This document shows, in pieces, positions 34,831-64,000 of a stretch of DNA of 64,000 bases (its first letter is position 1; every line of letters begins with the position of its first letter). Both the position numbers and the translations under genes were made by a program. The stretch covers positions 620,001 through 684,000 of the forward strand of contig OY986949.1 of NCBI GenBank assembly GCA_963920595.1, read 5' to 3'. The DNA comes from Eimeria praecox. Lineage: Eukaryota. Under the pieces are notes generated by a model that had not been told where the DNA came from, did not search any database, and worked only from the letters and a program-made list of their open reading frames with translations.

Positions 34831-37800
34831 ATGACGCTCATAAGCTACCCGCTACATAGGGCATGTACCCTACTAGCTCTCCTTGGTGTCTTTGGGGGTT
34901 CTGAGGCAAATTACATGCCAAGCTCCTCATCAGGACTCTCCGCGCAGGAGCAGTTCACTAGAGAAGAGCCCGGACAGCTTCTAGACGGAAGTGCGCCATA
35001 CTTGATTTATTGCTTACTCTGCTGAGTGCTTGAGCATCAGATAGTTTCAGTTCATATTGCATGAACATTCTTCAGGTGTTCATGGAATGGGCCGGGTCAT
35101 TCTGTTCCTCGTTGTGTCTCCCGTTACCTCTCAGAAATTCCGCGTAACGACGGCGGTGGCTTTCGTAGTGGTGGTCAGAAGAGCAGTGATGGCGGCTTCG
35201 GGGAGGAGAAGGAAACTCCTCCGCATGAGTATCCCGAGATGGCAGCTATACCAATGATGGCTGAAGCCGTCTTGGAGGACTGCGAGGATGAGGAAGAAGA
35301 GAAAGAAGAAGAAACTTCAGGCAGCACAAGGAGTAGCGATGAATCTTCGTCAAAAGAAGCTGACGAAGCTGCTTCGTTCAGAAAGGTACAGACATATAAC
35401 ACAACGGAGAGCGGTCCTCATCTGTTTGGTAGTAAAGGAATCCCCTGCTCTGGATGCACGGCCTCTAATGTTCAACCAGTCGCACAGCGGAAGACTTACC
35501 GGAGAACACCTGCTCATGCGCACCAGCTGCATGCACAAAGGAGTGTGAAAGTGCTTCATGATCGTTCCTGCAATGAGGCTACATCGGGAAAGCAGACGAC
35601 CCTTCGTAGGAATCAGCCGCACAGTGAGGGAGCACCACGGAATCCACAGGTTTACCGCTTTGAAGGAAATGCGACTCATTTGAATATCCCGATAATTCGC
35701 CGAGCGTCTGGTCCGCAAGACACGGGAGAGCTGGAAGGCACAACCCGCAACTGTACCAGCAAGGACTTTCCACAGGGCACCCGAGTCGCCTACAGGGCCC
35801 GATATCCACGCGGAACAGGCACTCCTAAGGGATGCCTTCAAGAGAGGGTTTCCTCTCCACAAGTCTCTCACGTGGTTAAGAGAGAGCATTATTCGTCCGA
35901 TATGGGTGCAACTGAAGCAGAAGAGTACTGCACTGATGGCTGTCAGCAAGCCGTCCCACATGCTTTCATCGTTAGATGCCCACGCAGAACAGGCACGCCT
36001 CAGGGGTGCCTTCACAGGAGAGAGCATTCTCCACAAATCGTTCGTTCTGCCCGGACATTGGACTATCCCTCCGGTGTGCATGAATCTGAAGCAGAGCAAT
36101 ATTATCGTGGCCGCTGTAGGCAAGCAACTCGCGGGAGATACAGGGCTCGATATCCATGCGGAACAGGCACGCCTCAGGGAAGCCTTCACAGGAGAGACGC
36201 CTCACAACAAACATTTCATCAGTTTAAAGGCGCCACCCAGCAACATGGCAATGGCGCACCTGTTCCAAGCATGCGCAGCAGCGGGATGCATCTACCAAGC
36301 ACTCGGCCAAACCCTGGTACTCGGTTTCCACGAAGAACTGGCACACCGCAGGGAAGCCTTCAAAGGCTAGTTACCCCTCTGCAAAGGCCCCAATCAGTGC
36401 AGGTTCTCCATAGCCAGCACAGTAGCATCTCTCCTGAATCGCAAGTACGCATAGACGAAGAATGTCCGCAGGCGACACAATTGGCCCGCAGGGATCGGTG
36501 CCCACAAGGAACAGGCACGCCTCAGGGATGCCTTCGCAGGAGGGAACCCCCCGTACAAATCTCTCACATGGTTCAAGAAACCCCTTATTCTACCGAGATG
36601 GACTTGCCTGAAAGCGAAGCATACAACAGTGACGACTGTTCGCAAGCCTTGCGTGGGACTTGGACGGATCCATTGCCATGCGCAGCAGGCGTGTTTCAGG
36701 GATGCCTTTGCATGAGGGAAGCCTCACCGCAACCCCCCCAAGCAGTTCAAGATCCCCCAGATGCAAGCGGCACGTGTACATCCGAAGGAAAAACATTCAG
36801 TGGAGAGACGTCTTCAACCAGTTTTCGCGAGGCCTTCACCGCTCGCTATTTTGCAGAAGCACGCATGGCGGAGACAGGTGCCGATAGTGACTTTGACTTT
36901 CAGTGGGATGACGGTGAGGAAAATGACGAACTCATTTCCCTTGCTTGTGAGGCGGTCACAAAGTCAAGCTTATCACCATTGCAACAGCGGCAAAAGAGAA
37001 CAGACGAACCTCAACAGAGCTGTCGAACTAACAGGTTCGAAGAGACTGTCCCAGCTGCCAATCAAAGGCAGGCCTTAGAAGCTGTCGACCCCTTCCAGAT
37101 TGTGAGATTCTGTTCAATGTGCTGGCTGTACGGCCTTAGCAGCTGCCTTCGTGAGCGCATGAGCAACACCCATACCAATGCATATCATTGCATATTGTTT
37201 TGCGGCAATTCAAAGTTTGCTTCTGGTTCCCGTTGTTTTGGGTTTGCAGCGAACACAAGAGACTCCCCAATATGCTATCGCCCCGCAAACAGATGGCCAG
37301 GACAAGCAGCAACAGGCGCACCAGCAGCAGAGCAGGATTGCACTATTAGGTTTGCCTCACACAGCAGTTGGGAGCACAAATTCTAAGTGGAGCACCTCTT
37401 GCGAGAATACAGGTCTTCTCGACCCGTCGGGGATTTGGAGTTCTAAGTGGGTGCCAGATTTCCCTGGGAATCCTGCCTGGGAAGGGGTAGGAAGTGCCAA
37501 CAGTACACATTTTTCGGTGGGACGTCAGGAGGATGATTGTTGGGGACGACGAAGGCACGAGGAGGTCTCGAGTTCTAATAGCGATTCAAATCGTTGTCTG
37601 CAACATCCGGCTACGCCTGACGAACAGACGCAGATGCCGGGCCTTAGTACACATACAGTTAATCCTTTTCAGTTACCACAAGTTGCACAGGCTGCAGGTG
37701 GATGTGACCATTGTGGCATTTCGTCATCAATGAACTCAGGGAAAACATCATCATCTCCATCACATGGCATTACATCAGAGAATTCAGGGACCACTTCACA

Positions 37801-42100: not shown

Positions 42101-42687
42101 GCCTCGCGGCTAGCTTGTGGCCTTGTCCACTTTAATCAGTTTCGCTCTCAATCACCTGCAAATATCCGAATTAACAAGCAAACAAAGTATTGCCTTTTTC
42201 AAAACCTTTTGTTTTTTCAATATTATTATCGCGTTAGCGTCTGTGTCTGCAAAGCAGCGAGTGTCCTGCCATCGACAGCCCAGGCAATTATCTTCGGAAA
42301 CAACTTTCGTCACGCTATCTGCTTCTCTCACCGCTTCTAACCGTCTGAATATTATAGTCTGCTGTGAGGTCTTTCATCCTCACCAAGGTAAGAAGGCAAG
42401 AATTCCCTCCACGGCTGCGAGCCTTTACCCAGCAAAGCGAATTCTTAGTGTCTTTGGTCAGAATCTTTGGCGCCTTCGGTCACTGGGTGCACTCCTACAC
42501 GCCTTGATGAAGCCGCTATCCTCATAGCTCCTTTACGCCCATTGGATGTTTTGTACATCACTCAAGTAGCAAAGTTTGGACCTTAGGACATGGTGTACGC
42601 GCCACAGGCCCACTCAATGTCCATCGTGTGCTCTGCCTTTGGCCTGTCATCCGCAGCCTGGACGGAAACTACTGAAACTACTGGAGA

Positions 42688-43476
42688 ATGATGCTCATAA
42701 GCTACCCGCTACATAGGGCATGTACCCTACTAGCTCTCCTTGGTGTCTTTGGGGGTTCTGAGGCAAATTACATGCCAAGCTCCTCATCAGGACTCTCCGT
42801 GCAGGAGCAGTTCACTAGAGAAGAGCCCGGACAGCTTCTAGACGGAAGTACGCCATGCTTGATTTATTGCTTACTCTGCTGAGTGCTTGAGCATCAGATA
42901 GTTTCAGTTCATATTGCATGAACATTCTTCAGGTGTTCATGGAATGGGCCGGGTCATTCTGTTCCTCGTTGTGTCTCCCGTTACCTCTCAGAAATTCCGC
43001 GTAACGACGGCGGTGGCTTTCGTAGTGGTGGTCAGAAGAGCAGTGATGGCGGCTTCGGGGAGGAGAAGGAAACTCCTCCGCATGAGTATCCCGAGATGGC
43101 AGCTATACCAATGATGGCTGAAGCCGTCTTGGAGGACTGCGAGGATGAGGAAGAAGAGAAAGAAGAAGAAACTTCAGGCAGCACAAGGAGTAGCGATGAA
43201 TCTTCGTCAAAAGAAGCTGACGAAGCTGCTTCGTTCAGAAAGGTACAGACATATAACACAACGGAGAGCGGTCCTCATCTGTTTGGTAGTAAAGGAATCC
43301 CCTGCTCTGGATGCACGGCCTCTAATGTTCAACCAGTCGCACAGCGGAAGACTTACCGGAGAACACCTGCTCATGCGCACCAGCTGCATGCACAATCGGG
43401 AAACCTGCATGGGCCAACCTTGAAGCCGAAGGAAAGATTTGTGGAGGATCTTCCCTTTTCCGACGCCCATTCTTAG
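42688..43476 (+). pseudogene. Copy 6: 5' fragment of the gene fused to the satellite
   Basis: Exon 1, intron 1 (donor gtacgc) and the start of exon 2 are retained. Identity to the unit stops at 43395. The frame continues SGNLHGPTLKPKERFVEDLPFSDAHS* into satellite sequence (stop at 43476). Confidence 0.85.
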
Positions 43477-43911
43477 GCACCACTTGACGGATCCCCAACT
43501 ATACGCATCCAGCAGCGACGAAGCCGCCCAGTCTACCCACCCACCTGCAATACTCGATCCCCAATCGACCCAAACGCGACTCAACGGCGCCGTTGCAGCA
43601 GGAAAGCATCTCCACAAATCTTTTACTCGGATTCAAGCTTCGGCTATTCACCGCAAGGTGCATGGGCCAACCTTGAAGCCGAAGGAAAGATTTGTGGAGA
43701 ATCTTCCCTTCTCCGACGCCCATTCTTAGGCACCACTTGACGGATCCCCAACTATACGCATCCAGCAGCGACGAAGCCGCCCAGTCTACCCACCCACCTG
43801 CAATACTCGATCCCCAACCGACCCAAACGCGACTCAACGGCGCCGTTGCAGAAGCCAAGCATCTCCACAAATCTTTTACTCGGCTTCAAGCTTCGGCTAT
43901 TCTCCTGGCCT
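43406..43911 (+). repeat. Two ~253-bp sub-repeats at the satellite start; the same 253/258-bp sub-repeat occurs about twice inside each 943-bp unit
   Basis: tgcatgggccaaccttgaagccgaaggaaagatttgtggag occurs at 43406 and 43659; ORF starts 43439 and 43692 are 253 apart. Confidence 0.93.
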
Positions 43912-44405
43912 CCGCCAGCCCGAAGCAGATGCATATTGCCGTGACCACTCTCCGCAAGCAACAGAAACGAGATGCAGGACCCACTCTCCACAACAAACTG
44001 ACACGCCTCAGGGATGCTTCCACGGGACACACACATCCGAAGACGTCTTCTTCTTCTGTCCATTGCTAAATGCTCCTCAGCAGCGCGAAAACGACCCTCT
44101 CGGTGCAAACCATACGCAGCAGTGGCGCGCATCCATCAAACATTCAACCAGGCCCCGCTATTCCAGTGCCACTACCAAAACCCACTCCGCAGCGAAGAAG
44201 CCTCCAAGCACTAGGTGAACTTCCTCAAACGAACCAGCAGCTACCCTGGCCCTTGTCAAAGGCGCGTCATGCGCTTTCAACAGATTGCTTCCGGAGAGTC
44301 ATCGCGGCAGTATGCATCTGCTTCGGGCTGGCGCACGCATGGTGAAGGGTCTAACCTTGAAGCCGAAGGAAAGATTTGTGGAGACGTTTTCCTTTTCCCG
44401 ACGCC
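43839..44405. repeat. ~120-bp imperfect inverted repeat (arms 43839-43961 and 44285-44405, spacer 323 bp), repeated along the satellite
   Basis: 43913-43961 matches the reverse complement of 44285-44333 at 44 of 49 nt. The + strand reads SPQIFYSASSFGYSPGLRQPEADAYCRDHSPQA and the - strand reads SPQIFPSASRLDPSPCVRQPEADAYCRDDSPEA. Confidence 0.93.
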
Positions 44406-44523
44406 CACGCTTAGGCAACGCTGGACGGATCCACAACTATACGCATGCAGCAGCGACGAGGAATCCCAGCCTACCCACCCACATGAAATACTCGATCCCC
44501 AACCGACCCCGACACACCTCAAA

Positions 44524-44658
44524 GGCGTCGTTGCAGAAGGGAAGCATCTCCACAAATCTTTTACTCGGCTTCAAGCTTCGGCTATTCACCGCAAGGTGCA
44601 TGGACCAACCTTGAAGCCGAAGGAAAGATTTGTGGAGAATCTTCCCTTCTCCGACGCC
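44524..44658. repeat. ~135-nt imperfect palindrome (fold-back hairpin) with cacc-GCAA-ggtg apex at 44591-44594; one per standard satellite unit
   Basis: The left arm ggcgtcg..agaagggaag..tctccacaaatcttt..tcggcttcaag pairs with the right arm cttgaagccga..aaagatttgtggaga..cttcccttct..cgacgcc. The register is ungapped out to agaagggaag/cttcccttct. Confidence 0.93.
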
Positions 44659-47600
44659 CATTCTGAGGCACCACTTGACGGATCGGATCCCCAACTATAC
44701 GCATCCAGCAGCGACGAAGCCGCCCAGTCTACCCACCCACATGAAATACTCGATCCCCAACCGACCCAAACGCGACTCAACGGCGTCGTCGCAGAAGCGA
44801 AGCATCTCCACAAATCTTTTACTCGGCTTCAAGCTTCGGCTATTCTCCTGGCCTCCGCCAGCCCGATGCAGATGCATATTGCCGTGACCACTCTCCGCAA
44901 GCAACAGAAACGAGATGCAGGACCCACTCTCCACAACAAACTGACACGCCTCAGGGATGCCTCCACGGGACACACACATCCGAAGACGTCTTCTTCTTCT
45001 GTCCATTGCTAAATGCTCCTCAGCAGCGCGAAAACGACCCTCTCGGTGCAAACCATACGCAGCAGTGGCGCGCATCCATCAAACATTCAACCAGGCCCCA
45101 CTATTCCAGTGCCACTACCAAAACCCACTCCGCAGCGAAGAAGCCTCCAAGCATTAGATGAACTTCCTCAAACGAACCAGCAGCTACCCTGGCCCTTGTC
45201 AAAGGCGCGTCATGCGCTTTCAACAGATTGCTTCCGGAGAGTCATCACGGCAGTATGCATCTGCTTCGGGCTGGCGCACGCATGGTGAAGGGTCTAACCT
45301 TGAAGCCGAAGGAAAGATTTGTGGAGACGTTTTCCTTTTCCCGACGCCCACGCTTAGGCAACGCTGGACGGATCCACAACTATACGCATGCAGCAGCGAC
45401 GAGGAATCCCAGCCTACCCACCCACATGAAATACTCGATCCCCAACCGACCCCGACACACCTCAACGGCGTCGTTGCAGAAGGGAAGCTTCTCCACAAAT
45501 CTTTTACTCGGCTTCAAGCTTCGGCTATTCACCGCAAGGTGCATGGACCAACCTTGAAGCCCAAGGAAAGATTTGTGGAGAATCTTCCCTTCTCCGACGC
45601 CCATTCTGAGGCACCACTTGACGGATCGGATCCCCAACTATACGCATCCAGCAGCGACGAAGCCGCCCAGTCTACCCACCCACATGAAATACTCGATCCC
45701 CAACCGACCCAAACGCGACTCAACGGCGTCGTCGCAGAAGCGAAGCATCTCCACAAATCTTTTACTCGGCTTCAAGCTTCGGCTATTCTCCTGGCCTCCG
45801 CCAGCCCGATGCAGATGCATATTGCCGTGACCACTCTCCGCAAGCAACAGAAACGAGATGCAGGACCCACTCTCCACAACAAACTGACACGCCTCAGGGA
45901 TGCCTCCACGGGACACACACATCCGAAGACGTCTTCTTCTTCTGTCCATTGCTAAATGCTCCTCAGCAGCGCGAAAACGACCCTCTCGGTGCAAACCATA
46001 CGCAGCAGTGGCGCGCATCCATCAAACATTCAACCAGGCCCCGCTATTCCAGTGCCACTACCAAAACCCACTCCGCAGCGAAGAAGCCTCCAAGCACTAG
46101 GTGAACTTCCTCAAACGAACCAGCAGCTACCCTGGCCCTTGTCAAAGCCGCGTCATGCGCTTTCAACAGATTGCTTCCGGAGAGTCATCGCGGCAGTATG
46201 CATCTGCTTCGGGCTGGCGCACGCATGGTGAAGGGTCTAACCTTGAAGCCGAAGGAAAGATTTGTGGAGACGTTTTCCTTTTCCCGACGCCCACGCTTAG
46301 GCAACGCTGGACGGATCCACAACTATACGCATGCAGCAGCGACGAGGAATCCCAGCCTACCCACCCACATGAAATACTCGATCCCCAACCGACCCCGACA
46401 CACCTCAAAGGCGTCGTTGCAGAAGGGAAGCATCTCCACAAATCTTTTACTCGGCTTCAAGCTTCGGCTATTCACCGCAAGGTGCATGGACCAACCTTGA
46501 AGCCGAAGGAAAGATTTGTGGAGAATCTTCCCTTCTCCGACGCCCATTCTGAGGCACCACTTGACGGATCGGATCCCCAACTATACGCATCCAGCAGCGA
46601 CGAAGCCGCCCAGTCTACCCACCCACCTGCAATACTCGATCCCCAACCGACCCAAACGCGACTCAACGGCGCCGTCGCAGCAGGGAAGCATCTCCACAAA
46701 TCTTTTACTCGGCTTCAAGCTTCGGCTATTCTCCTGGCCTCCGCCAGCCCGAAGCAGATGCATATTGCCGTGACCACTCTCCGCAAGCAACAGAAACGAG
46801 ATGCAGGACCCACTCTCCACAACAAACTGACACGCCTCAGGGATGCTTCCACGGGACACACACATCCGAAGACGTCTTCTTCTTCTGTCCATTGCTAAAT
46901 GCTCCTCAGCAGCGCGAAAACGACCCTCTCGGTGCAAACCATACGCAGCAGTGGCGCGCATCCATCAAACATTCAACCAGGCCCCGCTATTCCAGTGCCA
47001 CTACCAAAACGCACTCCGCAGCGAAGAAGCCTCCAAGCACTAGGTGAACTTCCTCAAACGAACCAGCAGCTACCCTGGCCCTTGTCAAAGGCGCGTCATG
47101 CGCTTTCAACAGATTGCTTCCGGAGAGTCATCGCGGCAGTATGCATCTGCTTCGGGCTGGCGCACGCATGGTGAAGGGTCTAACCTTGAAGCCGAAGGAA
47201 AGATTTGTGGAGACGTTTTCCTTTTCCCGACGCCCACGCTTAGGCAACGCTGGACGGATCCACAACTATACGCATGCAGCAGCGACGAGGAATCCCAGCC
47301 TACCCACCCACATGAAATACTCGATCCCCAACCGACCCCGACACACCTCAACGGCGTCGTTGCAGAAGGGAAGCATCTCCACAAATCTTTTACTCGGCTT
47401 CAAGCTTCGGCTATTCACCGCAAGGTGCATGGACCAACCTTGAAGCCCAAGGAAAGATTTGTGGAGAATCTTCCCTTCTCCGACGCCCATTCTGAGGCAC
47501 CACTTGACGGATCGGATCCCCAACTATACGCATCCAGCAGCGACGAAGCCGCCCAGTCTACCCACCCACATGAAATACTCGATCCCCAACCGACCCAAAC

Positions 47601-50600
47601 GCGACTCAACGGCGTCGTCGCAGAAGCGAAGCATCTCCACAAATCTTTTACTCGGCTTCAAGCTTCGGCTATTCTCCTGGCCTCCGCCAGCCCGATGCAG
47701 ATGCATATTGCCGTGACCACTCTCCGCAAGCAACAGAAACGAGATGCAGGACCCACTCTCCACAACAAACTGACACGCCTCAGGGATGCCTCCACGGGAC
47801 ACACACATCCGAAGACGTCTTCTTCTTCTGTCCATTGCTAAATGCTCCTCAGCAGCGCGAAAACGACCCTCTCGGTGCAAACCATACGCAGCAGTGGCGC
47901 GCATCCATCAAACATTCAACCAGGCCCCGCTATTCCAGTGCCACTACCAAAACCCACTCCGCAGCGAAGAAGCCTCCAAGCACTAGGTGAACTTCCTCAA
48001 ACGAACCAGCAGCTACCCTGGCCCTTGTCAAAGCCGCGTCATGCGCTTTCAACAGATTGCTTCCGGAGAGTCATCGCGGCAGTATGCATCTGCTTCGGGC
48101 TGGCGCACGCATGGTGAAGGGTCTAACCTTGAAGCCGAAGGAAAGATTTGTGGAGACGTTTTCCTTTTCCCGACGCCCACGCTTAGGCAACGCTGGACGG
48201 ATCCACAACTATACGCATGCAGCAGCGACGAGGAATCCCAGCCTACCCACCCACATGAAATACTCGATCCCCAACCGACCCCGACACACCTCAAAGGCGT
48301 CGTTGCAGAAGGGAAGCATCTCCACAAATCTTTTACTCGGCTTCAAGCTTCGGCTATTCACCGCAAGGTGCATGGACCAACCTTGAAGCCGAAGGAAAGA
48401 TTTGTGGAGAATCTTCCCTTCTCCGACGCCCATTCTGAGGCACCACTTGACGGATCGGATCCCCAACTATACGCATCCAGCAGCGACGAAGCCGCCCAGT
48501 CTACCCACCCACCTGCAATACTCGATCCCCAACCGACCCAAACGCGACTCAACGGCGCCGTCGCAGCAGGTAAGCATCTCCACAAATCTTTTACTCGGCT
48601 TCAAGCTTCGGCTATTCTCCTGGCCTCCGCCAGCCCGAAGCAGATGCATATTGCCGTGACCACTCTCCGCAAGCAACAGAAACGAGATGCAGGACCCACT
48701 CTCCACAACAAACTGACACGCCTCAGGGATGCTTCCACGGGACACACACATCCGAAGACGTCTTCTTCTTCTGTCCATTGCTAAATGCTCCTCAGCAGCG
48801 CGAAAACGACCCTCTCGGTGCAAACCATACGCAGCAGTGGCGCGCATCCATCAAACATTCAACCAGGCCCCGCTATTCCAGTGCCACTACCAAAACCCAC
48901 TCCGCAGCGAAGAAGCCTCCAAGCACTAGGTGAACTTCCTCAAACGAACCAGCAGCTACCCTGGCCCTTGTCAAAGCCGCGTCATGCGCTTTCAACAGAT
49001 TGCTTCCGGAGAGTCATCGCGGCAGTATGCATCTGCTTCGGGCTGGCGCACGCATGGTGAAGGGTCTAACCTTGAAGCCGAAGGAAAGATTTGTGGAGAC
49101 GTTTTCCTTTTCCCGACGCCCACGCTTAGGCAACGCTGGACGGATCCACAACTATACGCATGCAGCAGCGACGAGGAATCCCAGCCTACCCACCCACATG
49201 AAATACTCGATCCCCAACCGACCCCGACACACCTCAACGGCGTCGTTGCAGAAGGGAAGCATCTCCACAAATCTTTTACTCGGCTTCAAGCTTCGGCTAT
49301 TCACCGCAAGGTGCATGGGCCAACCTTGAAGCCGAAGGAAAGATTTGTGGAGAATCTTCCCTTCTCCGACGCCCATTCTGAGGCACCACTTGACGGATCG
49401 GATCCCCAGCTATACGCATCCAGCAGCGACGAAGCCGCCCAGTCTACCCACCCACCTGCAATACTCGATCCCCAACCGACCCAAACGCGACTCAACGGCG
49501 TCGTCGCAGAAGCCAAGCATCTCCACAAATCTTTTACTCGGCTTCAAGCTTCGGCTATTCTCCTGGCCTGCGCCAGCCCGAAGCAGATGCATATTGCCGT
49601 GACCACTCTCCGCAAGCAACAGAAACGAGATGCAGGACCCACTCTCCACAACAAACTGACACGCCTCAGGGATGCTTCCACGGGACACACACATCCGAAG
49701 ACGTCTTCTTCTTCTGTCCATTGCTAAATGCTCCTCAGCAGCGCGAAAACGACCCTCTCGGTGCAAACCATACGCAGCAGTGGCGCGCATCCATCAAACA
49801 TTCAACCAGGCCCCGCTATTCCAGTGCCACTACCAAAACCCACTCCGCAGCGAAGAAGCCTCCAAGCACTAGGTGAACTTCCTCAAACGAACCAGCAGCT
49901 ACCCTGGCCCTTGTCAAAGGCGCGTCATGCGCTTTCAACAGATTGCTTCCGGAGAGTCATCACGGCAGTATGCATCTGCTTCGGGCTGGCGCACGCAAGG
50001 TGAAGGGTCTAACCTTGAAGCCGAAGGAAAGATTTGTGGAGACGTTTTCCTTTTCCCGACGCCCACGCTTAGGCAACGCTGGACGGATCCACAACTATAC
50101 GCATGCAGCAGCGACGAGGAATCCCAGCCTACCCACCCACATGAAATACTCGATCCCCAACCGACCCCGACACACCTCAAAGGCGTCGTTGCAGAAGGGA
50201 AGCATCTCCACAAATCTTTTACTCGGCTTCAAGCTTCGGCTATTCACCGCAAGGTGCATGGACCAACCTTGAAGCCGAAGGAAAGATTTGTGGAGAATCT
50301 TCCCTTCTCCGACGCCCATTCTGAGGCACCACTTGACGGATCGGATCCCCAACTATACGCATCCAGCAGCGACGAAGCCGCCCAGTCTACCCACCCACCT
50401 GCAATACTCGATCCCCAACCGACCCAAACGCGACTCAACGGCGCCGTCGCAGCAGGGAAGCATCTCCACAAATCTTTTACTCGGATTCAAGCTTCGGCTA
50501 TTCTCCTGGCCTCCGCCAGCCCGAAGCAGATGCATATTGCCGTGACCACTCTCCGCAAGCAACAGAAACGAGATGCAGGACCCACTCTCCACAACAAACT

Positions 50601-52701
50601 GACACGCCTCAGGGATGCTTCCACGGGACACACACATCCGAAGACGTCTTCTTCTTCTGTCCATTGCTAAATGCTCCTCAGCAGCGCGAAAACGACCCTC
50701 TCGGTGCAAACCATACGCAGCAGTGGCGCGCATCCATCAAACATTCAACCAGGCCCCGCTATTCCAGTGCCACTACCAAAACGCACTCCGCAGCGAAGAA
50801 GCCTCCAAGCACTAGGTGAACTTCCTCAAACGAACCAGCAGCTACCCTGGCCCTTGTCAAAGGCGCGTCATGCGCTTTCAACAGATTGCTTCCGGAGAGT
50901 CATCGCGGCAGTATGCATCTGCTTCGGGCTGGCGCACGCATGGTGAAGGGTCTAACCTTGAAGCCGAAGGAAAGATTTGTGGAGACGTTTTCCTTTTCCC
51001 GACGCCCACGCTTAGGCAACGCTGGACGGATCCACAACTATACGCATGCAGCAGCGACGAGGAATCCCAGCCTACCCACCCACATGAAATACTCGATCCC
51101 CAACCGACCCCGACACACCTCAACGGCGTCGTTGCAGAAGGGAAGCATCTCCACAAATCTTTTACTCGGCTTCAAGCTTCGGCTATTCACCGCAAGGTGC
51201 ATGGGCCAACCTTGAAGCCGAAGGAAAGATTTGTGGAGAATCTTCCCTTCTCCGACGCCCATTCTGAGGCACCACTTGACGGATCGGATCCCCAGCTATA
51301 CGCATCCAGCAGCGACGAAGCCGCCCAGTCTACCCACCCACCTGCAATACTCGATCCCCAACCGACCCAAACGCGACTCAACGGCGTCGTCGCAGAAGCC
51401 AAGCATCTCCACAAATCTTTTACTCGGCTTCAAGCTTCGGCTATTCTCCTGGCCTGCGCCAGCCCGAAGCAGATGCATATTGCCGTGACCACTCTCCGCA
51501 AGCAACAGAAACGAGATGCAGGACCCACTCTCCACAACAAACTGACACGCCTCAGGGATGCTTCCACGGGACACACACATCCGAAGACGTCTTCTTCTTC
51601 TGTCCATTGCTAAATGCTCCTCAGCAGCGCGAAAACGACCCTCTCGGTGCAAACCATACGCAGCAGTGGCGCGCATCCATCAAACATTCAACCAGGCCCC
51701 GCTATTCCAGTGCCACTACCAAAACCCACTCCGCAGCGAAGAAGCCTCCAAGCACTAGGTGAACTTCCTCAAACGAACCAGCAGCTACCCTGGCCCTTGT
51801 CAAAGGCGCGTCATGCGCTTTCAACAGATTGCTTCCGGAGAGTCATCACGGCAGTATGCATCTGCTTCCGGCTGGCGCACGCAAGGTGAAGGGTCTAACC
51901 TTGAAGCCGAAGGAAAGATTTGTGGAGACGTTTTCCTTTTCCCGACGCCCACGCTTAGGCAACGCTGGACGGATCCACAACTATACGCATGCAGCAGCGA
52001 CGAGGAATCCCAGCCTACCCACCCACATGAAATACTCGATCCCCAACCGACCCCGACACACCTCAACGGCGTCGTTGCAGAAGGGAAGCATCTCCACAAA
52101 TCTTTTACTCGGCTTCAAGCTTCGGCTATTCACCGCAAGGTGCATGGACCAACCTTGAAGCCCAAGGAAAGATTTGTGGAGAATCTTCCCTTCTCCGACG
52201 CCCATTCTGAGGCACCACTTGACGGATCGGATCCCCAGCTATACGCATCCAGCAGCGACGAAGCCGCCCAGTCTACCCACCCACCTGCAATACTCGATCC
52301 CCAACCGACCCAAACGCGACTCAACGGCGTCGTCGCAGAAGCCAAGCATCTCCACAAATCTTTTACTCGGCTTCAAGCTTCGGCTATTCTCCTGGCCTCC
52401 GCCAGCCCGAAGCAGATGCATATTGCCGTGACCACTCTCCGCAAGCAACAGAAACGAGATGCAGGACCCACTCTCCACAACAAACTGACACGCCTCAGGG
52501 ATGCCTCTGCGGGACACACACATCCGAAGACGTCTTCTTCTTCTGTCCATTGCTAAATGCTCCTCAGCAGCGCGAAAACGACCCTCTCGGTGCAAACCAT
52601 ACGCAGCAGTGGCGCGCATCCATCAAACATTCAACCAGGCCCCGCTATTCCAGTGCCACTACCAAAACGCACTCCGCAGCGAAGAAGCCTCCAAGCACTA
52701 G

Positions 52702-53897
52702 GTGAACTTCCTCAAACGAACCAGCAGCTACCCTGGCCCTTGTCAAAGGCGCGTCATGCGCTTTCAACAGATTGCTTCCGGAGAGTCATCACGGCAGTAT
52801 GCATCTGCTTCGGGCTGGCGCACGCATGGTGAAGGGTCTAACCTTGAAGCCGAAGGAAAGATTTGTGGAGACGTTTTCCTTTTCCCGACGCCCACTCTTA
52901 GGCAACGCTAGACGGATCCACAACTATACGCATGCAGCAGCGACGAGGAATCCCAGCCTACCCACCCACATGAAATACTCGATCCCCAACCGACCCCGAC
53001 ACACCTCAACGGCGTCGTTGCAGAAGGGAAGCTTCTCCACAAATCTTTTACTCGGCTTCAAGCTTCGGCTATTCACCGCAAGGTGCATGGACCAACCTTG
53101 AAGCCCAAGGAAAGATTTGTGGAGAATCTTCCCTTCTCCGACGCCCATTCTGAGGCAACACTTGACGGATCGGATCCCCAACTATACGCATCCAGCAGCG
53201 ACGAAGCCGCCCAGTCTACCCACCCACCTGCAATACTCGATTCCCAACCGACCCCGACACACCTCAACGGCGTCGTTGCAGAAGGGAAGCATCTCCACAA
53301 ATCTTTTACTCGGCTTCAAGCTTCGGCTATTCACCGCAAGGTGCATGGACCAACCTTGAAGCCCAAGGAAAGATTTGTGGAGAATCTTCCCTTCTCCGAC
53401 GCCCATTCTGAGGCAACACTTGACGGATCATCAACTACACGGATGCAGCAGCGACGAAGCCGCCCAGTCTACCCACCCACCTGCAATACTCGGTCCCCAA
53501 CCGACCCAAACGCGACTCAACGGCGTCGTCGCAGAAGCCAAGCATCTCCACAAATCTTTTACTCGGCTTCAAGCTTCGGCTATTCTCCTGGCCTCCGCCA
53601 GCCCGAAGCAGATGCATATTGCCGTGACCACTCTCCGCAAGCAACAGAAACGAGATGCAGGACCCACTCTCCACAACAAACTGACACGCCTCAGGGATGC
53701 TTCCACGGGACACACACATCCGAAGACGTCTTCTTCTTCTGTCCATTGCTAAATGCTCCTCAGCAGCGCGAAAACGACCCTCTCGGTGCAAACCATACGC
53801 AGCAGTGGCGCGCATCCATCAAACATTCAACCAGGCCCCGCTATTCCAGTGCCACTACCAAAACGCACTCCGCAGCGAAGAAGCCTCCAAGCACTAG
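52702..53897 (+). repeat. 1196-bp long satellite variant (extra 253-bp sub-repeat, two hairpins); second instance 58575-59770
   Basis: Marker spacing is 1196 = 943+253. GCAA apices lie at 53078 and 53336. Confidence 0.95.
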
Positions 53898-54513
53898 GTG
53901 AACTTCCTCAAACGAACCAGCAGCTACCCTGGCCCTTGTCAAAGGCGCGTCATGCGCTTTCAACAGATTGCTTCCGGAGAGTCATCACGGCAGTATGCAT
54001 CTGCTTCGGGCTGGCGCACGCAAGGTGAAGGGTCTAACCTTGAAGCCGAAGGAAAGATTTGTGGAGACGTTTTCCTTTTTCCGACGCCCACGCTTAGGCA
54101 ACGCTGGACGGATCCACAACTATACGCATGCAGCAGCGGAGCCGTCGCAGAAGCGAAGCATCTCCACAAATCTTTTACTCGGCTTCAAGCTTCGGCTATT
54201 CTCCTGGCCTGCGCCAGCCCGAAGCAGATGCATATTGCCGTGACCACTCTCCGCAAGGAACAGAAACGAGATGCAGGACCCACTCTCCACAACAAACTGA
54301 CACGCCTCAGGGATGCCTCCACGGGACACACACATCCGAAGACGTCTTCTTCTTCTGTCCATTGCTAAATGCTCCTCAGCAGCGCGAAAACGACCCTCTC
54401 GGTGCAAACCATACGCAGCAGTGGCGCGCATCCATCAAACATTCAACCAGGCCCCGCTATTCCAGTGCCACTACCAAAACCCACTCCGCAGCGAAGAAGC
54501 CTCCAAGCACTAG
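53898..54513 (+). repeat. 616-bp short satellite variant (327-bp deletion removing the GCAA hairpin); also 56400-57015 and 57016-57631
   Basis: Marker spacing is 616. The same novel junction gcatgcagcagcggagccgtcgcagaag is seen near 54138, 56640 and 57256. Confidence 0.95.
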
Positions 54514-57500
54514 GTGAACTTCCTCAAACGAACCAGCAGCTACCCTGGCCCTTGTCAAAGCCGCGTCATGCGCTTTCAACAGATTGCTTCCGGAGAGTCA
54601 TCGCGGCAGTATGCATCTGCTTCGGGCTGGCGCACGCATGGTGAAGGGTCTAACCTTGAAGCCGAAGGAAAGATTTGTGGAGACGTTTTCCTTTTCCCGA
54701 CGCCCACGCTTAGGCAACGCTGGACGGATCCACAACTATACGCATGCAGCAGCGACGAGGAATCCCAGCCTACCCACCCACATGAAATACTCGATCCCCA
54801 ACCGACCCCGACACACCTCAACGGCGTCGTTGCAGAAGGGAAGCATCTCCACAAATCTTTTACTCGGCTTCAAGCTTCGGCTATTCACCGCAAGGTGCAT
54901 GGGCCAACCTTGAAGCCGAAGGAAAGATTTGTGGAGAATCTTCCCTTCTCCGACGCCCATTCTGAGGCACCACTTGACGGATCGGATCCCCAGCTATACG
55001 CATCCAGCAGCGACGAAGCCGCCCAGTCTACCCACCCACCTGCAATACTCGATCCCCAACCGACCCAAACGCGACTCAACGGCGTCGTCGCAGAAGCCAA
55101 GCATCTCCACAAATCTTTTACTCGGCTTCAAGCTTCGGCTATTCTCCTGGCCTGCGCCAGCCCGAAGCAGATGCATATTGCCGTGACCACTCTCCGCAAG
55201 CAACAGAAACGAGATGCAGGACCCACTCTCCACAACAAACTGACACGCCTCAGGGATGCCTCCACGGGACACACACATCCGACGACGTCTTCTTCTTCTG
55301 TCCATTGCTAAATGCTCCTCAGCAGCGCGAAAACGACCCTCTCGGTGCAAACCATACGCAGCAGTGGCGCGCATCCATCAAACATTCAACCAGGCCCCGC
55401 TATTCCAGTGCCACTACCAAAACGCACTCCGCAGCGAAGAAGCCTCCAAGCACTAGGTGAACTTCCTCAAACGAACCAGCAGCTACCCTGGCCCTTGTCA
55501 AAGGCGCGTCATGCGCTTTCAACAGATTGCTTCCGGAGAGTCATCACGGCAGTATGCATCTGCTTCGGGCTGGCGCACGCATGGTGAAGGGTCTAACCTT
55601 GAAGCCGAAGGAAAGATTTGTGGAGACGTTTTCCTTTTCCCGACGCCCACGCTTAGGCAACGCTGGACGGATCCACAACTATACGCATGCAGCAGCGACG
55701 AGGAATCCCAGCCTACCCACCCACATGAAATACTCGATCCCCAACCGACCCCGACACACCTCAACGGCGTCGTTGCAGAAGGGAAGCATCTCCACAAATC
55801 TTTTACTCGGCTTCAAGCTTCGGCTATTCACCGCAAGGTGCATGGACCAACCTTGAAGCCGAAGGAAAGATTTGTGGAGAATCTTCCCTTCTCCGACGCC
55901 CATTCTGAGGCACCACTTGACGGATCGGATCCCCAGCTATACGCATCCAGCAGCGACGAAGCCGCCCAGTCTACCCACCCACCTGCAATACTCGATCCCC
56001 AACCGACCCAAACGCGACTCAACGGCGTCGTCGCAGAAGCCAAGCATCTCCGCAAATCTTTTACTCGGCTTCAAGCTTCGGCTATTCTCCTGGCCTCCGC
56101 CAGCCCGAAGCAGATGCATATTGCCGTGACCACTCTCCGCAAGCAACAGAAACGAGATGCAGGACCCACTCTCCACAACAAACTGACACGCCTCAGGGAT
56201 GCCTCCACGGGACACACACATCCGAAGACGTCTTCTTCTTCTGTCCATTGCTAAATGCTCCTCAGCAGCGCGAAAACGACCCTCTCGGTGCAAACCATAC
56301 GCAGCAGTGGCGCGCATCCATCAAACATTCAACCAGGCCCCGCTATTCCAGTGCCACTACCAAAACCCACTCCGCAGCGAAGAAGCCTCCAAGCACTAGG
56401 TGAACTTCCTCAAACGAACCAGCAGCTACCCTGGCCCTTGTCAAAGGCGCGTCATGCGCTTTCAACAGATTGCTTCCGGAGAGTCATCACGGCAGTATGC
56501 ATCTGCTTCGGGCTGGCGCACGCAAGGTGAAGGGTCTAACCTTGAAGCCGAAGGAAAGATTTGTGGAGACGTTTTCCTTTTCCCGACGCCCACGCTTAGG
56601 CAACGCTGGACGGATCCACAACTATACGCATGCAGCAGCGGAGCCGTCGCAGAAGCGAAGCATCTCCACAAATCTTTTACTCGGCTTCAAGCTTCGGCTA
56701 TTCTCCTGGCCTGCGCCAGCCCGAAGCAGATGCATATTGCCGTGACCACTCTCCGCAAGCAACAGAAACGAGATGCAGGACCCACTCTCCACAACAAACT
56801 GACACGCCTCAGGGATGCTTCCACGGGACACACACATCCGAAGACGTCTTCTTCTTCTGTCCATTGCTAAATGCTCCTCAGCAGCGCGAAAACGACCCTC
56901 TCGGTGCAAACCATACGCAGCAGTGGCGCGCATCCATCAAACATTCAACCAGGCCCCGCTATTCCAGTGCCACTACCAAAACCCACTCCGCAGCGAAGAA
57001 GCCTCCAAGCACTAGGTGAACTTCCTCAAACGAACCAGCAGCTACCCTGGCCCTTGTCAAAGGCGCGTCATGCGCTTTCAACAGATTGCTTCCGGAGAGT
57101 CATCACGGCAGTATGCATCTGCTTCGGGCTGGCGCACGCAAGGTGAAGGGTCTAACCTTGAAGCCGAAGGAAAGATTTGTGGAGACGTTTTCCTTTTCCC
57201 GACGCCCACGCTTAGGCAACGCTGGACGGATCCACAACTATACGCATGCAGCAGCGGAGCCGTCGCAGAAGCGAAGCATCTCCACAAATCTTTTACTCGG
57301 CTTCAAGCTTCGGCTATTCTCCTGGCCTGCGCCAGCCCGAAGCAGATGCATATTGCCGTGACCACTCTCCGCAAGCAACAGAAACGAGATGCAGGACCCA
57401 CTCTCCACAACAAACTGACACGCCTCAGGGATGCTTCCACGGGACACACACATCCGAAGACGTCTTCTTCTTCTGTCCATTGCTAAATGCTCCTCAGCAG

Positions 57501-60500
57501 CGCGAAAACGACCCTCTCGGTGCAAACCATACGCAGCAGTGGCGCGCATCCATCAAACATTCAACCAGGCCCCGCTATTCCAGTGCCACTACCAAAACCC
57601 ACTCCGCAGCGAAGAAGCCTCCAAGCACTAGGTGAACTTCCTCAAACGAACCAGCAGCTACCCTGGCCCTTGTCAAAGGCGCGTCATGCGCTTTCAACAG
57701 ATTGCTTCCGGAGAGTCATCACGGCAGTATGCATCTGCTTCGGGCTGGCGCACGCATGGTGAAGGGTCTAACCTTGAAGCCGAAGGAAAGATTTGTGGAG
57801 ACGTTTTCCTTTTCCCGACGCCCACGCTTAGGCAACGCTGGACGGATCCACAACTATACGCATGCAGCAGCGACGAGGAATCCCAGCCTACCCACCCACA
57901 TGAAATACTCGATCCCCAACCGACCCCGACACACCTCAACGGCGTCGTTGCAGAAGGGAAGCATCTCCACAAATCTTTTACTCGGCTTCAAGCTTCGGCT
58001 ATTCACCGCAAGGTGCATGGACCAACCTTGAAGCCCAAGGAAAGATTTGTGGAGAATCTTCCCTTCTCCGACGCCCATTCTGAGGCACCACTTGACGGAT
58101 CGGATCCCCAGCTATACGCATCCAGCAGCGACGAAGCCGCCCAGTCTACCCACCCACCTGCAATACTCGATCCCCAACCGACCCAAACGCGACTCAACGG
58201 CGTCGTCGCAGAAGCGAAGCATCTCCACAAATCTTTTACTCGGCTTCAAGCTTCGGCTATTCTCCTGGCCTCCGCCAGCCCGAAGCAGATGCATATTGCC
58301 GTGACCAGTCTCCGCAAGCAACAGAAACGAGATGCAGGACCCACTCTCCACAACAAACTGACACGCCTCAGGGATGCCTCCACGGGACACACACATCCGA
58401 AGACGTCTTCTTCTTCTGTCCATTGCTAAATGCTCCTCAGCAGCGCGAAAACGACCCTCTCGGTGCAAACCATACGCAGCAGTGGCGCGCATCCATCAAA
58501 CATTCAACCAGGCCCCGCTATTCCAGTGCCACTACCAAAACCCACTCCGCAGCGAAGAAATCTCCAAGCACTAGGTGAACTTCCTCAAACGAACCAGCAG
58601 CTACCCTGGCCCTTGTCAAAGCCGCGTCATGCGCTTTCAACAGATTGCTTCCGGAGAGTCATCGCGGCAGTATGCATCTGCTTCGGGCTGGCGCACGCAT
58701 GGTGAAGGGTCTAACCTTGAAGCCGAAGGAAAGATTTGTGGAGACGTTTTCCTTTTCCCGACGCCCACTCTTAGGCAACGCTGGACGGATCCACAACTAT
58801 ACGCATGCAGCAGCGACGAGGAATCCCAGCCTACCCACCCACATGAAATACTCGATCCCCAACCGACCCCGACACACCTCAACGGCGTCGTTGCAGAAGG
58901 GAAGCTTCTCCACAAATCTTTTACTCGGCTTCAAGCTTCGGCTATTCACCGCAAGGTGCATGGACCAACCTTGAAGCCGAAGGAAAGATTTGTGGAGAAT
59001 CTTCCCTTCTCCGACGCCCATTCTGAGGCACCACTTGACGGATCGGATCCCCAACTATACGCATCCAGCAGCGACGAAGCCGCCCAGTCTAACCACCCAC
59101 CTGCAATACTCGATTCCCAACCGAGCCCGACACACCTCAACGGCGTCGTTGCAGAAGGGAAGCTTCTCCACAAATCTTTTACTCGGCTTCAAGCTTCGGC
59201 TATTCACCGCAAGGTGCATGGACCAACCTTGAAGCCCAAGGAAAGATTTGTGGAGAATCTTCCCTTCTCCGACGCCCATTCTGAGGCACCACTTGACGGA
59301 TCATCAACTACACGGATGCAGCAGCGACGAAGCCGCCCAGTCTACCCACCCACCTGCAATACTCGGTCCCCAACCGACCCAAACGCGACTCAACGGCGTC
59401 GTCGCAGAAGCGAAGCATCTCCACAAATCTTTTACTCGGCTTCAAGCTTCGGCTATTCTCCTGGCCTCCGCCAGCCCGAAGCAGATGCATATTGCCGTGA
59501 CCACTCTCCGCAAGCAACAGAAACGAGATGCAGGACCCACTCTCCACAACAAACTGACACGCTTCAGGGATGCCTCCACGGGACACACACATCCGAAGAC
59601 GTCTTCTTCTTCTGTCCATTGCTAAATGCTCCTCAGCAGCGCGAAAACGACCCTCTCGGTGCAAACCATACGCAGCAGTGGCGCGCATCCATCAAACATT
59701 CAACCAGGCCCCGCTATTCCAGTGCCACTACCAAAACCCACTCCGCAGCGAAGAAGCCTCCAAGCACTAGGTGAACTTCCTCAAACGAACCAGCAGCTAC
59801 CCTGGCCCTTGTCAAAGGCGCGTCATGCGCTTTCAACAGATTGCTTCCGGAGAGTCATCACGGCAGTATGCATCTGCTTCGGGCTGGCGCACGCATGGTG
59901 AAGGGTCTAACCTTGAAGCCGAAGGAAAGATTTGTGGAGACGTTTTCCTTTTCCCGACGCCCACGCTTAGGCAACGCTGGACGGATCCACAACTATACGC
60001 ATGCAGCAGCGACGAGGAATCCCAGCCTACCCACCCACATGAAATACTCGATCCCCAACCGACCCCGACACACCTCAACGGCGTCGTTGCAGAAGGGAAG
60101 CTTCTCCACAAATCTTTTACTCGGCTTCAAGCTTCGGCTATTCACCGCAAGGTGCATGGACCAACCTTGAAGCCGAAGGAAAGATTTGTGGAGAATCTTC
60201 CCTTCTCCGACGCCCATTCTGAGGCACCACTTGACGGATCGGATCCCCAGCTATACGCATCCAGCAGCGACGAAGCCGCCCAGTCTACCCACCCACCTGC
60301 AATACTCGATCCCCAACCGACCCAAACGCGACTCAACGGCGTCGTCGCAGAAGCGAAGCATCTCCACAAATCTTTTACTCGGCTTCAAGCTTCGGCTATT
60401 CTCCTGGCCTCCGCCAGCCCGAAGCAGATGCATATTGCCGTGACCACTCTCCGCAAGCAACAGAAACGAGATGCAGGACCCACTCTCCACAACAAACTGA

Positions 60501-63500
60501 CACGCCTCAGGGATGCCTCCACGGGACACACACATCCGAAGACGTCTTCTTCTTCTGTCCATTGCTAAATGCTCCTCAGCAGCGCGAAAACGACCCTCTC
60601 GGTGCAAACCATACGCAGCAGTGGCGCGCATCCATCAAACATTCAACCAGGCCCCGCTATTCCAGTGCCACTACCAAAACGCACTCCGCAGCGAAGAAAT
60701 CTCCAAGCACTAGGTGAACTTCCTCAAACGAACCAGCAGCTACCCTGGCCCTTGTCAAAGGCGCGTCATGCGCTTTCAACAGATTGCTTCCGGAGAGTCA
60801 TCACGGCAGTATGCATCTGCTTCGGGCTGGCGCACGCATGGTGAAGGGTCTAACCTTGAAGCCGAAGGAAAGATTTGTGGAGACGTTTTCCTTTTCCCGA
60901 CGCCCACGCTTAGGCAACGCTGGACGGATCCACAACTATACGCATGCAGCAGCGACGAGGAATCCCAGCCTACCCACCCACATGAAATACTCGATCCCCA
61001 ACCGACCCCGACACACCTCAACGGCGTCGTTGCAGAAGGGAAGCTTCTCCACAAATCTTTTACTCGGCTTCAAGCTTCGGCTATTCACCGCAAGGTGCAT
61101 GGACCAACCTTGAAGCCGAAGGAAAGATTTGTGGAGAATCTTCCCTTCTCCGACGCCCATTCTGAGGCACCACTTGACGGATCGGATCCCCAGCTATACG
61201 CATCCAGCAGCGACGAAGCCGCCCAGTCTACCCACCCACCTGCAATACTCGATCCCCAACCGACCCAAACGCGACTCAACGGCGCCGTCGCAGAAGCGAA
61301 GCATCTCCACAAATCTTTTACTCGGCTTCAAGCTTCGGCTATTCTCCTGGCCTCCGCCAGCCCGATGCAGATACATATTGCCGTGACCACTCTCCGCAAG
61401 CAACAGAAACGAGATGCAGGACCCACTCTCCACAACAAACTGACACGCCTCAGGGATGCCTCCACGGGACACACACATCCGAAGACGTCTTCTTCTTCTG
61501 TCCATTGCTAAATGCTCCTCAGCAGCGCGAAAACGACCCTCTCGGTGCAAACCATACGCAGCAGTGGCGCGCATCCATCAAACATTCAACCAGGCCCCGC
61601 TATTCCAGTGCCACTACCAAAACCCACTCCGCAGCGAAGAAGCCTCCAAGCACTAGGTGAACTTCCTCAAACGAACCAGCAGCTACCCTGGCCCTTGTCA
61701 AAGGCGCGTCATGCGCTTTCAACAGATTGCTTCCGGAGAGTCATCGCGGCAGTATGCATCTGCTTCGGGCTGGCGCACGCATGGTGAAGGGTCTAACCTT
61801 GAAGCCGAAGGAAAGATTTGTGGAGACGTTTTCCTTTTCCCGACGCCCACGCTTAGGCAACGCTGGACGGATCCACAACTATACGCATGCAGCAGCGACG
61901 AGGAATCCCAGCCTACCCACCCACATGAAATACTCGATCCCCAACCGACCCCGACACACCTCAACGGCGTCGTTGCAGAAGGGAAGCATCTCCACAAATC
62001 TTTTACTCGGCTTCAAGCTTCGGCTATTCACCGCAAGGTGCATGGGCCAACCTTGAAGCCCAAGGAAAGATTTGTGGAGAATCTTCCCTTCTCCGACGCC
62101 CATTCTGAGGCACCACTTGACGGATCGGATCCCCAACTATACGCATCCAGCAGCGACGAAGCCGCCCAGTCTACCCACCCACCTGCAATACTCGATCCCC
62201 AACCGACCCAAACGCGACTCAACGGCGCCGTCGCAGAAGCGAAGCATCTCCACAAATCTTTTACTCGGCTTCAAGCTTCGGCTATTCTCCTGGCCTCCGC
62301 CAGCCCGATGCAGATGCATATTGCCGTGACCACTCTCCGCAAGCAACAGAAACGAGATGCAGGACCCACTCTCCACAACAAACTGACACGCCTCAGGGAT
62401 GCCTCCACGGGACACACACATCCGAAGACGTCTTCTTCTTCTGTCCATTGCTAAATGCTCCTCAGCAGCGCGAAAACGACCCTCTCGGTGCAAACCATAC
62501 GCAGCAGTGGCGCGCATCCATCAAACATTCAACCAGGCCCCGCTATTCCAGTGCCACTACCAAAACGCACTCCGCAGCGAAGAAGCCTCCAAGCACTAGG
62601 TGAACTTCCTCAAACGAACCAGCAGCTACCCTGGCCCTTGTCAAAGGCGCGTCATGCGCTTTCAACAGATTGCTTCCGGAGAGTCATCGCGGCAGTATGC
62701 ATCTGCTTCGGGCTGGCGCACGCATGGTGAAGGGTCTAACCTTGAAGCCGAAGGAAAGATTTGTGGAGACGTTTTCCTTTTCCCGACGCCCACGCTTAGG
62801 CAACGCTGGACGGATCCACAACTATACGCATGCAGCAGCGACGAGGAATCCGAGCCTACCCACCCACATGAAATACTCGATTCCCAACCGACCCCGACAC
62901 ACCTCAACGGCGTCGTTGCAGAAGGGAAGCATCTCCACAAATCTTTTACTCGGCTTCAAGCTTCGGCTATTCACCGCAAGGTGCATGGGCCAACCTTGAA
63001 GCCCAAGGAAAGATTTGTGGAGAATCTTCCCTTCTCCGACGCCCATTCTGAGGCACCACTTGACGGATCGGATCCCCAGCTATACGCATCCAGCAGCGAC
63101 GAAGCCGCCCAGTCTACCCACCCACCTGCAATACTCGATCCCCAACCGACCCAAACGCGACTCAACGGCGCCGTCGCAGAAGCGAAGCATCTCCACAAAT
63201 CTTTTACTCGGCTTCAAGCTTCGGCTATTCTCCTGGCCTCCGCCAGCCCGATGCAGATACATATTGCCGTGACCACTCTCCGCAAGCAACAGAAACGAGA
63301 TGCAGGACCCACTCTCCACAACAAACTGACACGCCTCAGGGATGCCTCCACGGGACACACACATCCGAAGACGTCTTCTTCTTCTGTCCATTGCTAAATG
63401 CTCCTCAGCAGCGCGAAAACGACCCTCTCGGTGCAAACCATACGCAGCAGTGGCGCGCATCCATCAAACATTCAACCAGGCCCCGCTATTCCAGTGCCAC

Positions 63501-64000
63501 TACCAAAACGCACTCCGCAGCGAAGAAGCCTCCAAGCACTAGGTGAACTTCCTCAAACGAACCAGCAGCTACCCTGGCCCTTGTCAAAGGCGCGTCATGC
63601 GCTTTCAACAGATTGCTTCCGGAGAGTCATCGCGGCAGTATGCATCTGCTTCGGGCTGGCGCACGCATGGTGAAGGGTCTAACCTTGAAGCCGAAGGAAA
63701 GATTTGTGGAGACGTTTTCCTTTTCCCGACGCCCACGCTTAGGCAACGCTGGACGGATCCACAACTATACGCATGCAGCAGCGACGAGGAATCCCAGCCT
63801 ACCCACCCACATGAAATACTCGATTCCCAACCGACCCCGACACACCTCAACGGCGTCGTTGCAGAAGGGAAGCATCTCCACAAATCTTTTACTCGGCTTC
63901 AAGCTTCGGCTATTCACCGCAAGGTGCATGGACCAACCTTGAAGCCCAAGGAAAGATTTGTGGAGAATCTTCCCTTCTCCGACGCCCATTCTGAGGCACC

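Follow-up and report, generated by a model that had tools for sequence, protein, structure and literature searches.

The gene array and the adjoining satellite

The window, that is, the whole stretch of 64,000 nucleotides analysed here, corresponds to positions 620,001 to 684,000 of the forward strand of contig OY986949.1 (assembly GCA_963920595.1) from Eimeria praecox, Eimeria being a gut parasite of chicken. Positions 1-43400 are occupied by tandem units of 7.8 kb, which repeat with periods of 7773, 7773, 7773, 7872, and 7857 nt, are 98-99% identical, and contain open reading frames (ORFs) starting at 4048, 11821, 19594, 27367, 35239, and 43096. Behind the last of these begins a satellite made of a short monomer (S) and a long monomer (L), which mostly alternate with a higher-order period of 943 nt, adding up to 44 monomers across 20.6 kb. 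The features of one gene unit, of the junction, and of one S-L pair are collected in Table 1.

Table 1. Features of the gene array and the satellite (window coordinates; paired blocks are numbered within the S monomer)
Feature	Position	Strand	Remarks
715-codon ORF of the 7.8-kb unit	35239..37386	+	174-nt modules; relative of the source of the satellite
Gene site complementary to S 104-124	36019..36039	+	14 nt perfect, plant-style penalty 2.5
Gene-satellite junction	43391..43410	+	sixth gene copy stops after codon ~100; filler of about 11 nt; satellite begins at S 74
Satellite array	43406..64000	+	22 S and 22 L monomers; continues past the window end
S left arm	44524..44590	+	sense fragment of gene module; 64/67 identical to L left arm
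GCAA loop	44591..44594	+	equals L positions 499-502
S right arm	44595..44658	+	inverted (antisense) gene-module copy; G>C at 44619 (S 96)
10-bp block	S 12-21/118-127		perfect pairing
15-bp block	S 24-38/101-115		perfect pairing
11-bp block	S 42-52/87-97		perfect pairing; broken by variant G96C
S spacer	44659..44781	+	5' part is a further inverted gene fragment (19/36); 3' part starts the next sense fragment (19/36)
L left arm	44782..44904	+	about 123 nt; follows the gene module collinearly from 36005
L loop	44905..45227	+	323 nt; missing in S along with the upper stem
L right arm	45228..45348	+	copy of the left arm in inverse orientation; complementarity 82/100 across L 24-123
L spacer	45349..45466	+	20/118 differences from S spacer

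The protein encoded by the gene array is built of modules of 58 residues with the motif R.P.GTGTPQG.L. No Pfam family was recovered for any of the ORFs searched (5/5, the 715-codon ORF included), and a protein search scored just three proteins among 7991 candidates. The best relative is a 'hypothetical protein, conserved' of Eimeria praecox, whose identity is 100% across 25% of the query (the C-terminal quarter). The 7.8-kb array is a recent amplification of an Eimeria-specific hypothetical gene, and gene families specific to Eimeria are described in PMC4199364. At 38640-38720, and at the same place in the copies of the unit, an indel of 84-99 nt and small frameshifts occur close to the 3' portion of the gene, and some gene copies may therefore be damaged.

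In the satellite, 18 S monomers measure 258 nt, three measure 253 nt, and one is cut by the window end, while 19 L monomers measure 685 nt and three measure 616 nt; the mean pairwise difference between monomers is about 1-1.6%. The three L monomers of 616 nt (at 54137, 56639, and 57255) have lost the same 69 nt of spacer at a common GGAGC junction, and this joint is also found in sequencing run X1, which indicates a real variant family. Two of the S monomers of 253 nt (53269-53521 and 59142-59394) combine a hairpin of S type with a spacer of L type; being recombinants, they point to exchange between S and L. The first S monomer (43586-43838, -61.4 kcal/mol) is the most divergent, with four private changes, all at paired positions, and it lies at the array edge, where homogenisation is expected to be weakest.

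The satellite was also found in three DNA runs from two studies (X1, X2, and X3, of which X1 and X3 are one sample, possibly the source), and a 271-nt contig of X2 spans the hairpin apex, so the repeat is no artefact of this assembly. No run recorded as RNA was among those listed, which carries no information on expression. In X1, a loose end of 238 nt departs from the S right arm 9 nt beyond the loop (44603) into unrelated sequence, which possibly marks a diverged copy or the end of a further array. An exact 28-letter pattern gave 0 matches in JGI metagenomes, and a search of the open-access literature at listing level found no description of this satellite. A promoter and terminator scan of prokaryotic type, unsuited to a eukaryote, returned 0 and 1 sites, the same as shuffles.

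Within the satellite the reading frame of the gene is interrupted by stops, and the lengths of 253, 616, 685, and 943 nt are not divisible by 3. Open frames of 125-265 codons persist, with no Pfam match and no relatives in the databases searched; in a weak protein search, the 125-codon frame of L gave 68 candidates, none with E<=1. A recurring frame of 265 codons (44215-45012), which extends from the right arm of one L through S into the following L, differs from the gene frame, has no Pfam match, and is likely incidental.

The short-monomer hairpin and its relation to the long monomer

Positions 44524-44658 (135 nt) form a single hairpin, with a minimum free energy as RNA of -83.9 kcal/mol (z -12.3) that is matched by 0/200 dinucleotide shuffles. 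The minus strand folds equally well (-84.6 kcal/mol, z -13.8), and the same stretch folded as DNA reaches -48 kcal/mol (z -10.8). Read from the apex, the register covers 62 positions, comprising 50 Watson-Crick pairs, 3 G-U pairs, and 9 mismatches; shifted registers of the arms give only 14-23 pairs. The apex, CACCGCAAGGTG, is found in 22/22 S monomers. The S hairpin is confirmed as real. A preliminary description of this DNA had given its coordinates, the GCAA apex, the three perfect blocks, and an in-register pairing of more than 50 positions, all of them correctly, and the comparison with dinucleotide shuffles that it proposed places the folding energy far beyond them. Two of its statements need amending: the 11-bp block is present but broken by the variant G96C in 10/22 S monomers, and the hairpin, assigned there to each standard unit, does recur in every S monomer, but the same arms are also carried, around a loop of 323 nt, by the 22 L monomers, which had been overlooked.

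In L, arms of about 123 nt enclose the 323-nt loop, and the resulting stem-loop has a folding energy of -230 kcal/mol (z -8.6, 30 shuffles); the arms of S are 64-67 nt long, and complementarity between arms is 78-82%. The alignment of S to L contains one central gap of 431 nt, which departs from symmetry about the stem by no more than 4 nt. Judged from this single gap, S is L minus about 431 central nucleotides.

When L together with the 60 nt upstream was compared to gene positions 35945-36204, 156/260 positions agreed without gaps (background 67), with extra peaks at the 174-nt period, and tblastn gave an E value of 2e-13. Sense homology to the gene begins at L -60, crosses the left arm, and ends within the loop at about L 380. 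The right arm is an inverted gene module, and its homology does not stop at the arm ends: the adjoining 36 nt of spacer still match at 19/36 (p 3e-4), and on the loop side a weak match (22/52, p about 0.005-0.008) perhaps reaches another 50 nt. Both arms are about equally distant from the gene, and the overall identity of the satellite to the neighbouring gene is about 60%. At the level of alignment, both arms are homologous to the 174-nt module of the gene in opposite directions, and the sense homology of the left arm together with the inverted homology of the right arm makes the monomer two gene fragments facing each other.

This extent of homology bears on the reading of the array as a tandem series of a MITE or foldback transposon, in which the arms would be terminal inverted repeats and S an internally deleted copy. 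L does resemble an element with inverted ends of 123 nt around 323 nt, and S resembles its deletion derivative, but the gene homology crosses the arm ends into both spacer and loop, the flanks (AAC on the left, CAT or CAC on the right) form no target-site duplication, and no dispersed copy is present in window positions 1-43400, all of which make a transposon origin hardly tenable.

The reading that is favoured here takes L as the older form and S as its deletion derivative, given that the left arm of L passes unbroken into gene-like sequence. The stem would fold transiently in DNA made single-stranded during replication or repair, and such folding, with template switching between the arms, could account for both the near-symmetrical deletion and the patches of ~90% complementarity. 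S and L would then have been co-amplified as the 943-nt higher-order repeat, and unequal exchange would homogenise this repeat, carrying the hairpin along. On balance, the hairpin belongs to a monomer assembled from two pieces of the gene family, one in sense orientation and the other inverted; it likely arose through the central deletion of about 431 nt from L, which brought the two together, and is likely a by-product without a sequence-specific function. The preliminary description had derived the structure from a fold-back inversion of the gene-derived module; the inversion of the module stands as the source of the arms, and the apex is better ascribed to the central deletion of L than to a direct fold-back at a 4-nt tip.

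GNRA loops are stable in RNA, and the GCAA apex had been taken as one of them. The corresponding positions of L (499-502), which belong there to the stem region, read GCAA in 5/22 copies and GCAT in 17/22. With GCAA already standing at the deletion junction in those five copies, a GNRA loop in S needs neither selection nor a new mutation, and a new T-to-A change, considered as its origin, was rejected on the same grounds. Any one 4-mer has a 2.6% chance of being GNRA on this strand and a 3.3% chance on the opposite one; as the choice was made post hoc, these figures are suggestive at most. The GNRA reading of the hairpin is weak.

At the boundary between the two arrays, the filler resembles gene sequence located 44 nt downstream, and the first satellite monomer begins two bases beyond the loop. 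A break at the hairpin tip may have created this junction, but the case is a single event with short microhomology.

Arm complementarity, sequence variation, and DNA structure

Complementarity between the arms is unevenly distributed. It amounts to 82/100 in the stem (L 24-123) and to 37/88 in the gene-homologous flanks (p 1e-8), a flank count that includes the inner flank, whose homology to the gene is weak (p about 0.005-0.008). By stem segment, the values are 26/29, 13/23, and 43/48, with a scan statistic of p 0.04-0.15 depending on window size. A Fisher test of 15/36 against 79/97 gave p 2e-5. Within the modules of the gene itself, conservation is highest in the outer flank (23-32/36), and protein constraint is thus no explanation for the dissimilarity of the flanks. 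The contrast between stem and flanks means that uniform decay after one inversion is insufficient, and that either copying from arm to arm or selection is needed.

Template switching between the arms would be the likeliest cause of both the patches and the near-symmetrical deletion, although selection on two helices would yield a similar pattern. According to PMC8604942, template switching homogenises the arms of inverted repeats without selection, and PMC7999016 describes hairpins that form in single-stranded DNA of the lagging strand and promote deletions. The quasi-palindromes treated in both papers are likewise imperfect inverted repeats whose arms are homogenised patchwise; they illustrate a mutational process and not a family of sequences, and in the satellite the process is deduced from the pattern alone.

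The mismatches between the arms could also be older than the satellite, if two diverged gene copies had been fused in opposite orientation, leaving a functionless structure whose mismatches are partly inherited from the coding past. Of the 21 differences between the arms, many of them conservative, 11 are at third codon positions (p 0.056), a weak excess which hints that part of the arm mismatch dates from the coding past. The similar distance of both arms from the gene would also fit such a fusion. The third-position excess is marginal, however, 11/16 changed codons are non-synonymous, and a fusion alone would not account for the flanks, the most conserved regions of the modules, being the least alike between the arms. 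As the whole explanation, joined paralogues are highly improbable.

The preliminary description had proposed tabulating SNPs across all units as a check on pairing. In the 22 S hairpins (7 distinct), no change affects both sides of a pair, and no one-sided change keeps a pair; the S pairs that vary (5/57) all do so by breaking. The commonest variant, G96C, disrupts a C-G pair of the 11-bp block; it accounts for roughly half of the contig depth summed over X1, depth not being equal to copy number, and is present in the single contig of X2. Variable sites of S number 4/92 at paired and 2/20 at unpaired positions (p 0.29), or 1/92 and 2/20 if common variants are considered (p 0.08), and S 100-135 is invariant in 22/22 copies. 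In L, variable sites amount to 7/158 at paired positions and 12/325 in the loop (p 0.80), with diversities of 0.0064 and 0.0073, respectively.

The comparison of S with L gives a similar picture. Their stems differ at 11 positions, 0 of which are changed on both sides. Divergence of the right arm (9/64) is not distinguishable from that of the spacer (20/118; p 0.68), and divergence of the left arm (3/67) is below that of the spacer (p 0.02). At the informative right-arm differences, the pair is kept by S five times and by L once (p 0.22); like the lower share of variable sites at paired positions of S, this speaks against neutrality without reaching significance. S and L share a right-arm core of 32 nt without a difference, and almost the same is true of a spacer stretch of comparable length. 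In L, G-U outnumbers A-C by 7:3 (p 0.34) and in S by 2:1, transversion mismatches make up 15/25 in L and 7/10 in S, and no significant strand preference emerges. The tabulation thus revealed neither covariation nor depletion of variation at paired sites, and falls on the neutral side with low power: the number of events is small, and in an array of so many copies any single one is under weak selection, which leaves these tests compatible with some constraint.

A role as a DNA structure has also been considered, in which an extruded cruciform or hairpin would be bound by a protein, for example in a centromere or a heterochromatin block. The DNA hairpin described above, with its loop of 4 nt, is stable, the array begins two bases from the apex (a single event), and long dyads occur in putative pericentromeric satellites of beetles, for which a role is proposed in PMC13081366. 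Energetically, however, extrusion of two hairpins from the duplex costs 93 kcal/mol, compared with 12 kcal/mol for a perfect control with the same arm, and the first 15 positions from the tip include 5 mismatches and 1 wobble. According to a rough estimate, extrusion never pays at a supercoiling of -0.03 and is about break-even at -0.06 for 44-56 bp, before junction costs. The cruciform put forward in the preliminary description is therefore unlikely on energetic grounds, and a functional DNA structure in general is very unlikely.

A possible hairpin RNA and comparable systems

The alternative with a function at the RNA level supposes that the array is transcribed, that the stems of S and L are diced, and that right-arm small RNAs repress the neighbouring genes or maintain heterochromatin at the locus. 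Besides the 56-bp in-register stem of S (z -12), the -230 kcal/mol stem-loop of L (z -8.6), the high complementarity of the arms in patches, and the unchanged S 100-135, it can appeal to the gene site complementary to S 104-124, whose penalty of 2.5 compares with 5.0 in the best of 100 shuffled arms, and whose 14-nt core and flanks are identical in 5/5 whole gene copies. However, a 21-mer from the L loop, outside the stem, matches the gene better (penalty 1.0). As this control indicates that common ancestry is enough to account for matches of this kind, the antisense match was dropped as a sign of selection.

Further arguments come from other organisms. The layout is like that of the hp-tHMG cluster of Drosophila simulans, as presented in PMC10317233; one Argonaute per Eimeria species is reported in PMC9353057; and, according to PMC2877743, Toxoplasma satellites are a source of small RNAs, as is an imperfect repeat stem-loop. 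Against these stand the absence of covariation and of a significant G-U bias, the equal folding of both strands, and the statement, in PMC9353057 and for draft genomes that are incomplete, that E. tenella is the one chicken coccidian in which a Dicer-like gene was found. An Rfam scan of positions 34000-50000 gave four matches, all to mir-208 and all below the gathering threshold (24.5-24.6 bits, cut-off 56.4), and three 10-mers of the stem were absent from two supplements of one E. tenella microRNA study, a result of little weight given the different species. Although the satellite may work like an hpRNA by analogy, and may form the pre-miRNA-like stem suggested in the preliminary description, a hairpin-RNA cluster is unlikely. 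Its more specific form, in which the stems are kept paired and diced to silence the adjacent tandem genes as Drosophila hpRNA clusters do, would imply an unfound Dicer route in E. praecox and is quite unlikely.

The Drosophila loci provide a parallel in arrangement. According to PMC10317233, hp-tHMG of D. simulans consists of 13 tandem hpRNAs, together with paralogues of the source gene, at a heterochromatin boundary, and both hp-tHMG and hp-CG4068 have in common with the satellite that they are tandem inverted fragments of an amplified neighbouring gene with an antisense stem. In contrast, these loci are transcribed and Dicer-dependent, whereas the Eimeria satellite is at most a candidate for transcription, is only about 60% identical to the neighbouring gene, and belongs to a species in whose draft no Dicer-like gene has been found.

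Among coccidia, the satellites Sat350 and Sat529 and the solo-SDR of Toxoplasma gondii, as described in PMC2877743, are also high-copy repeats, and the imperfect stem-loop of the solo-SDR yields small RNAs at a low level. Toxoplasma differs in possessing a full silencing machinery, and the SDR flanks mitochondrial-like fragments and not modules of a nuclear gene. If the stems of E. praecox yielded small RNAs, they would constitute the first gene-derived hairpin-RNA cluster in Eimeria, with its target next door, and would bear on RNA silencing in chicken coccidia other than E. tenella.

Plant microRNA genes are reportedly born by inverted duplication, as Allen et al. are said to have proposed in 2004, and would share with the satellite the inverted gene fragments and the antisense stem.

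With regard to satellites themselves, long imperfect inverted arms in tandem monomers are likewise found in TmSat2 of Tribolium madens, in the 1061-bp satellite of T. brevicornis, and in the 385-bp satellite of Trichogramma brassicae, according to PMC13081366, and there, as in Eimeria, the hairpin is predicted and its function unproven. Inverted elements of 15 kb, described in PMC13652916, are no close match to the satellite. Compared with the beetle and wasp satellites, the Eimeria satellite is distinguished by arms that can be traced to the protein-coding module of an adjacent gene array, by two types of monomer that are a central deletion apart, and by its apicomplexan host. If the hairpin is a by-product, as favoured here, the satellite would have been caught beside its parent gene family, with the steps of its formation (fragment, inversion, central deletion, and dimer amplification) still readable; it would also be a high-copy candidate species marker, of modest interest.
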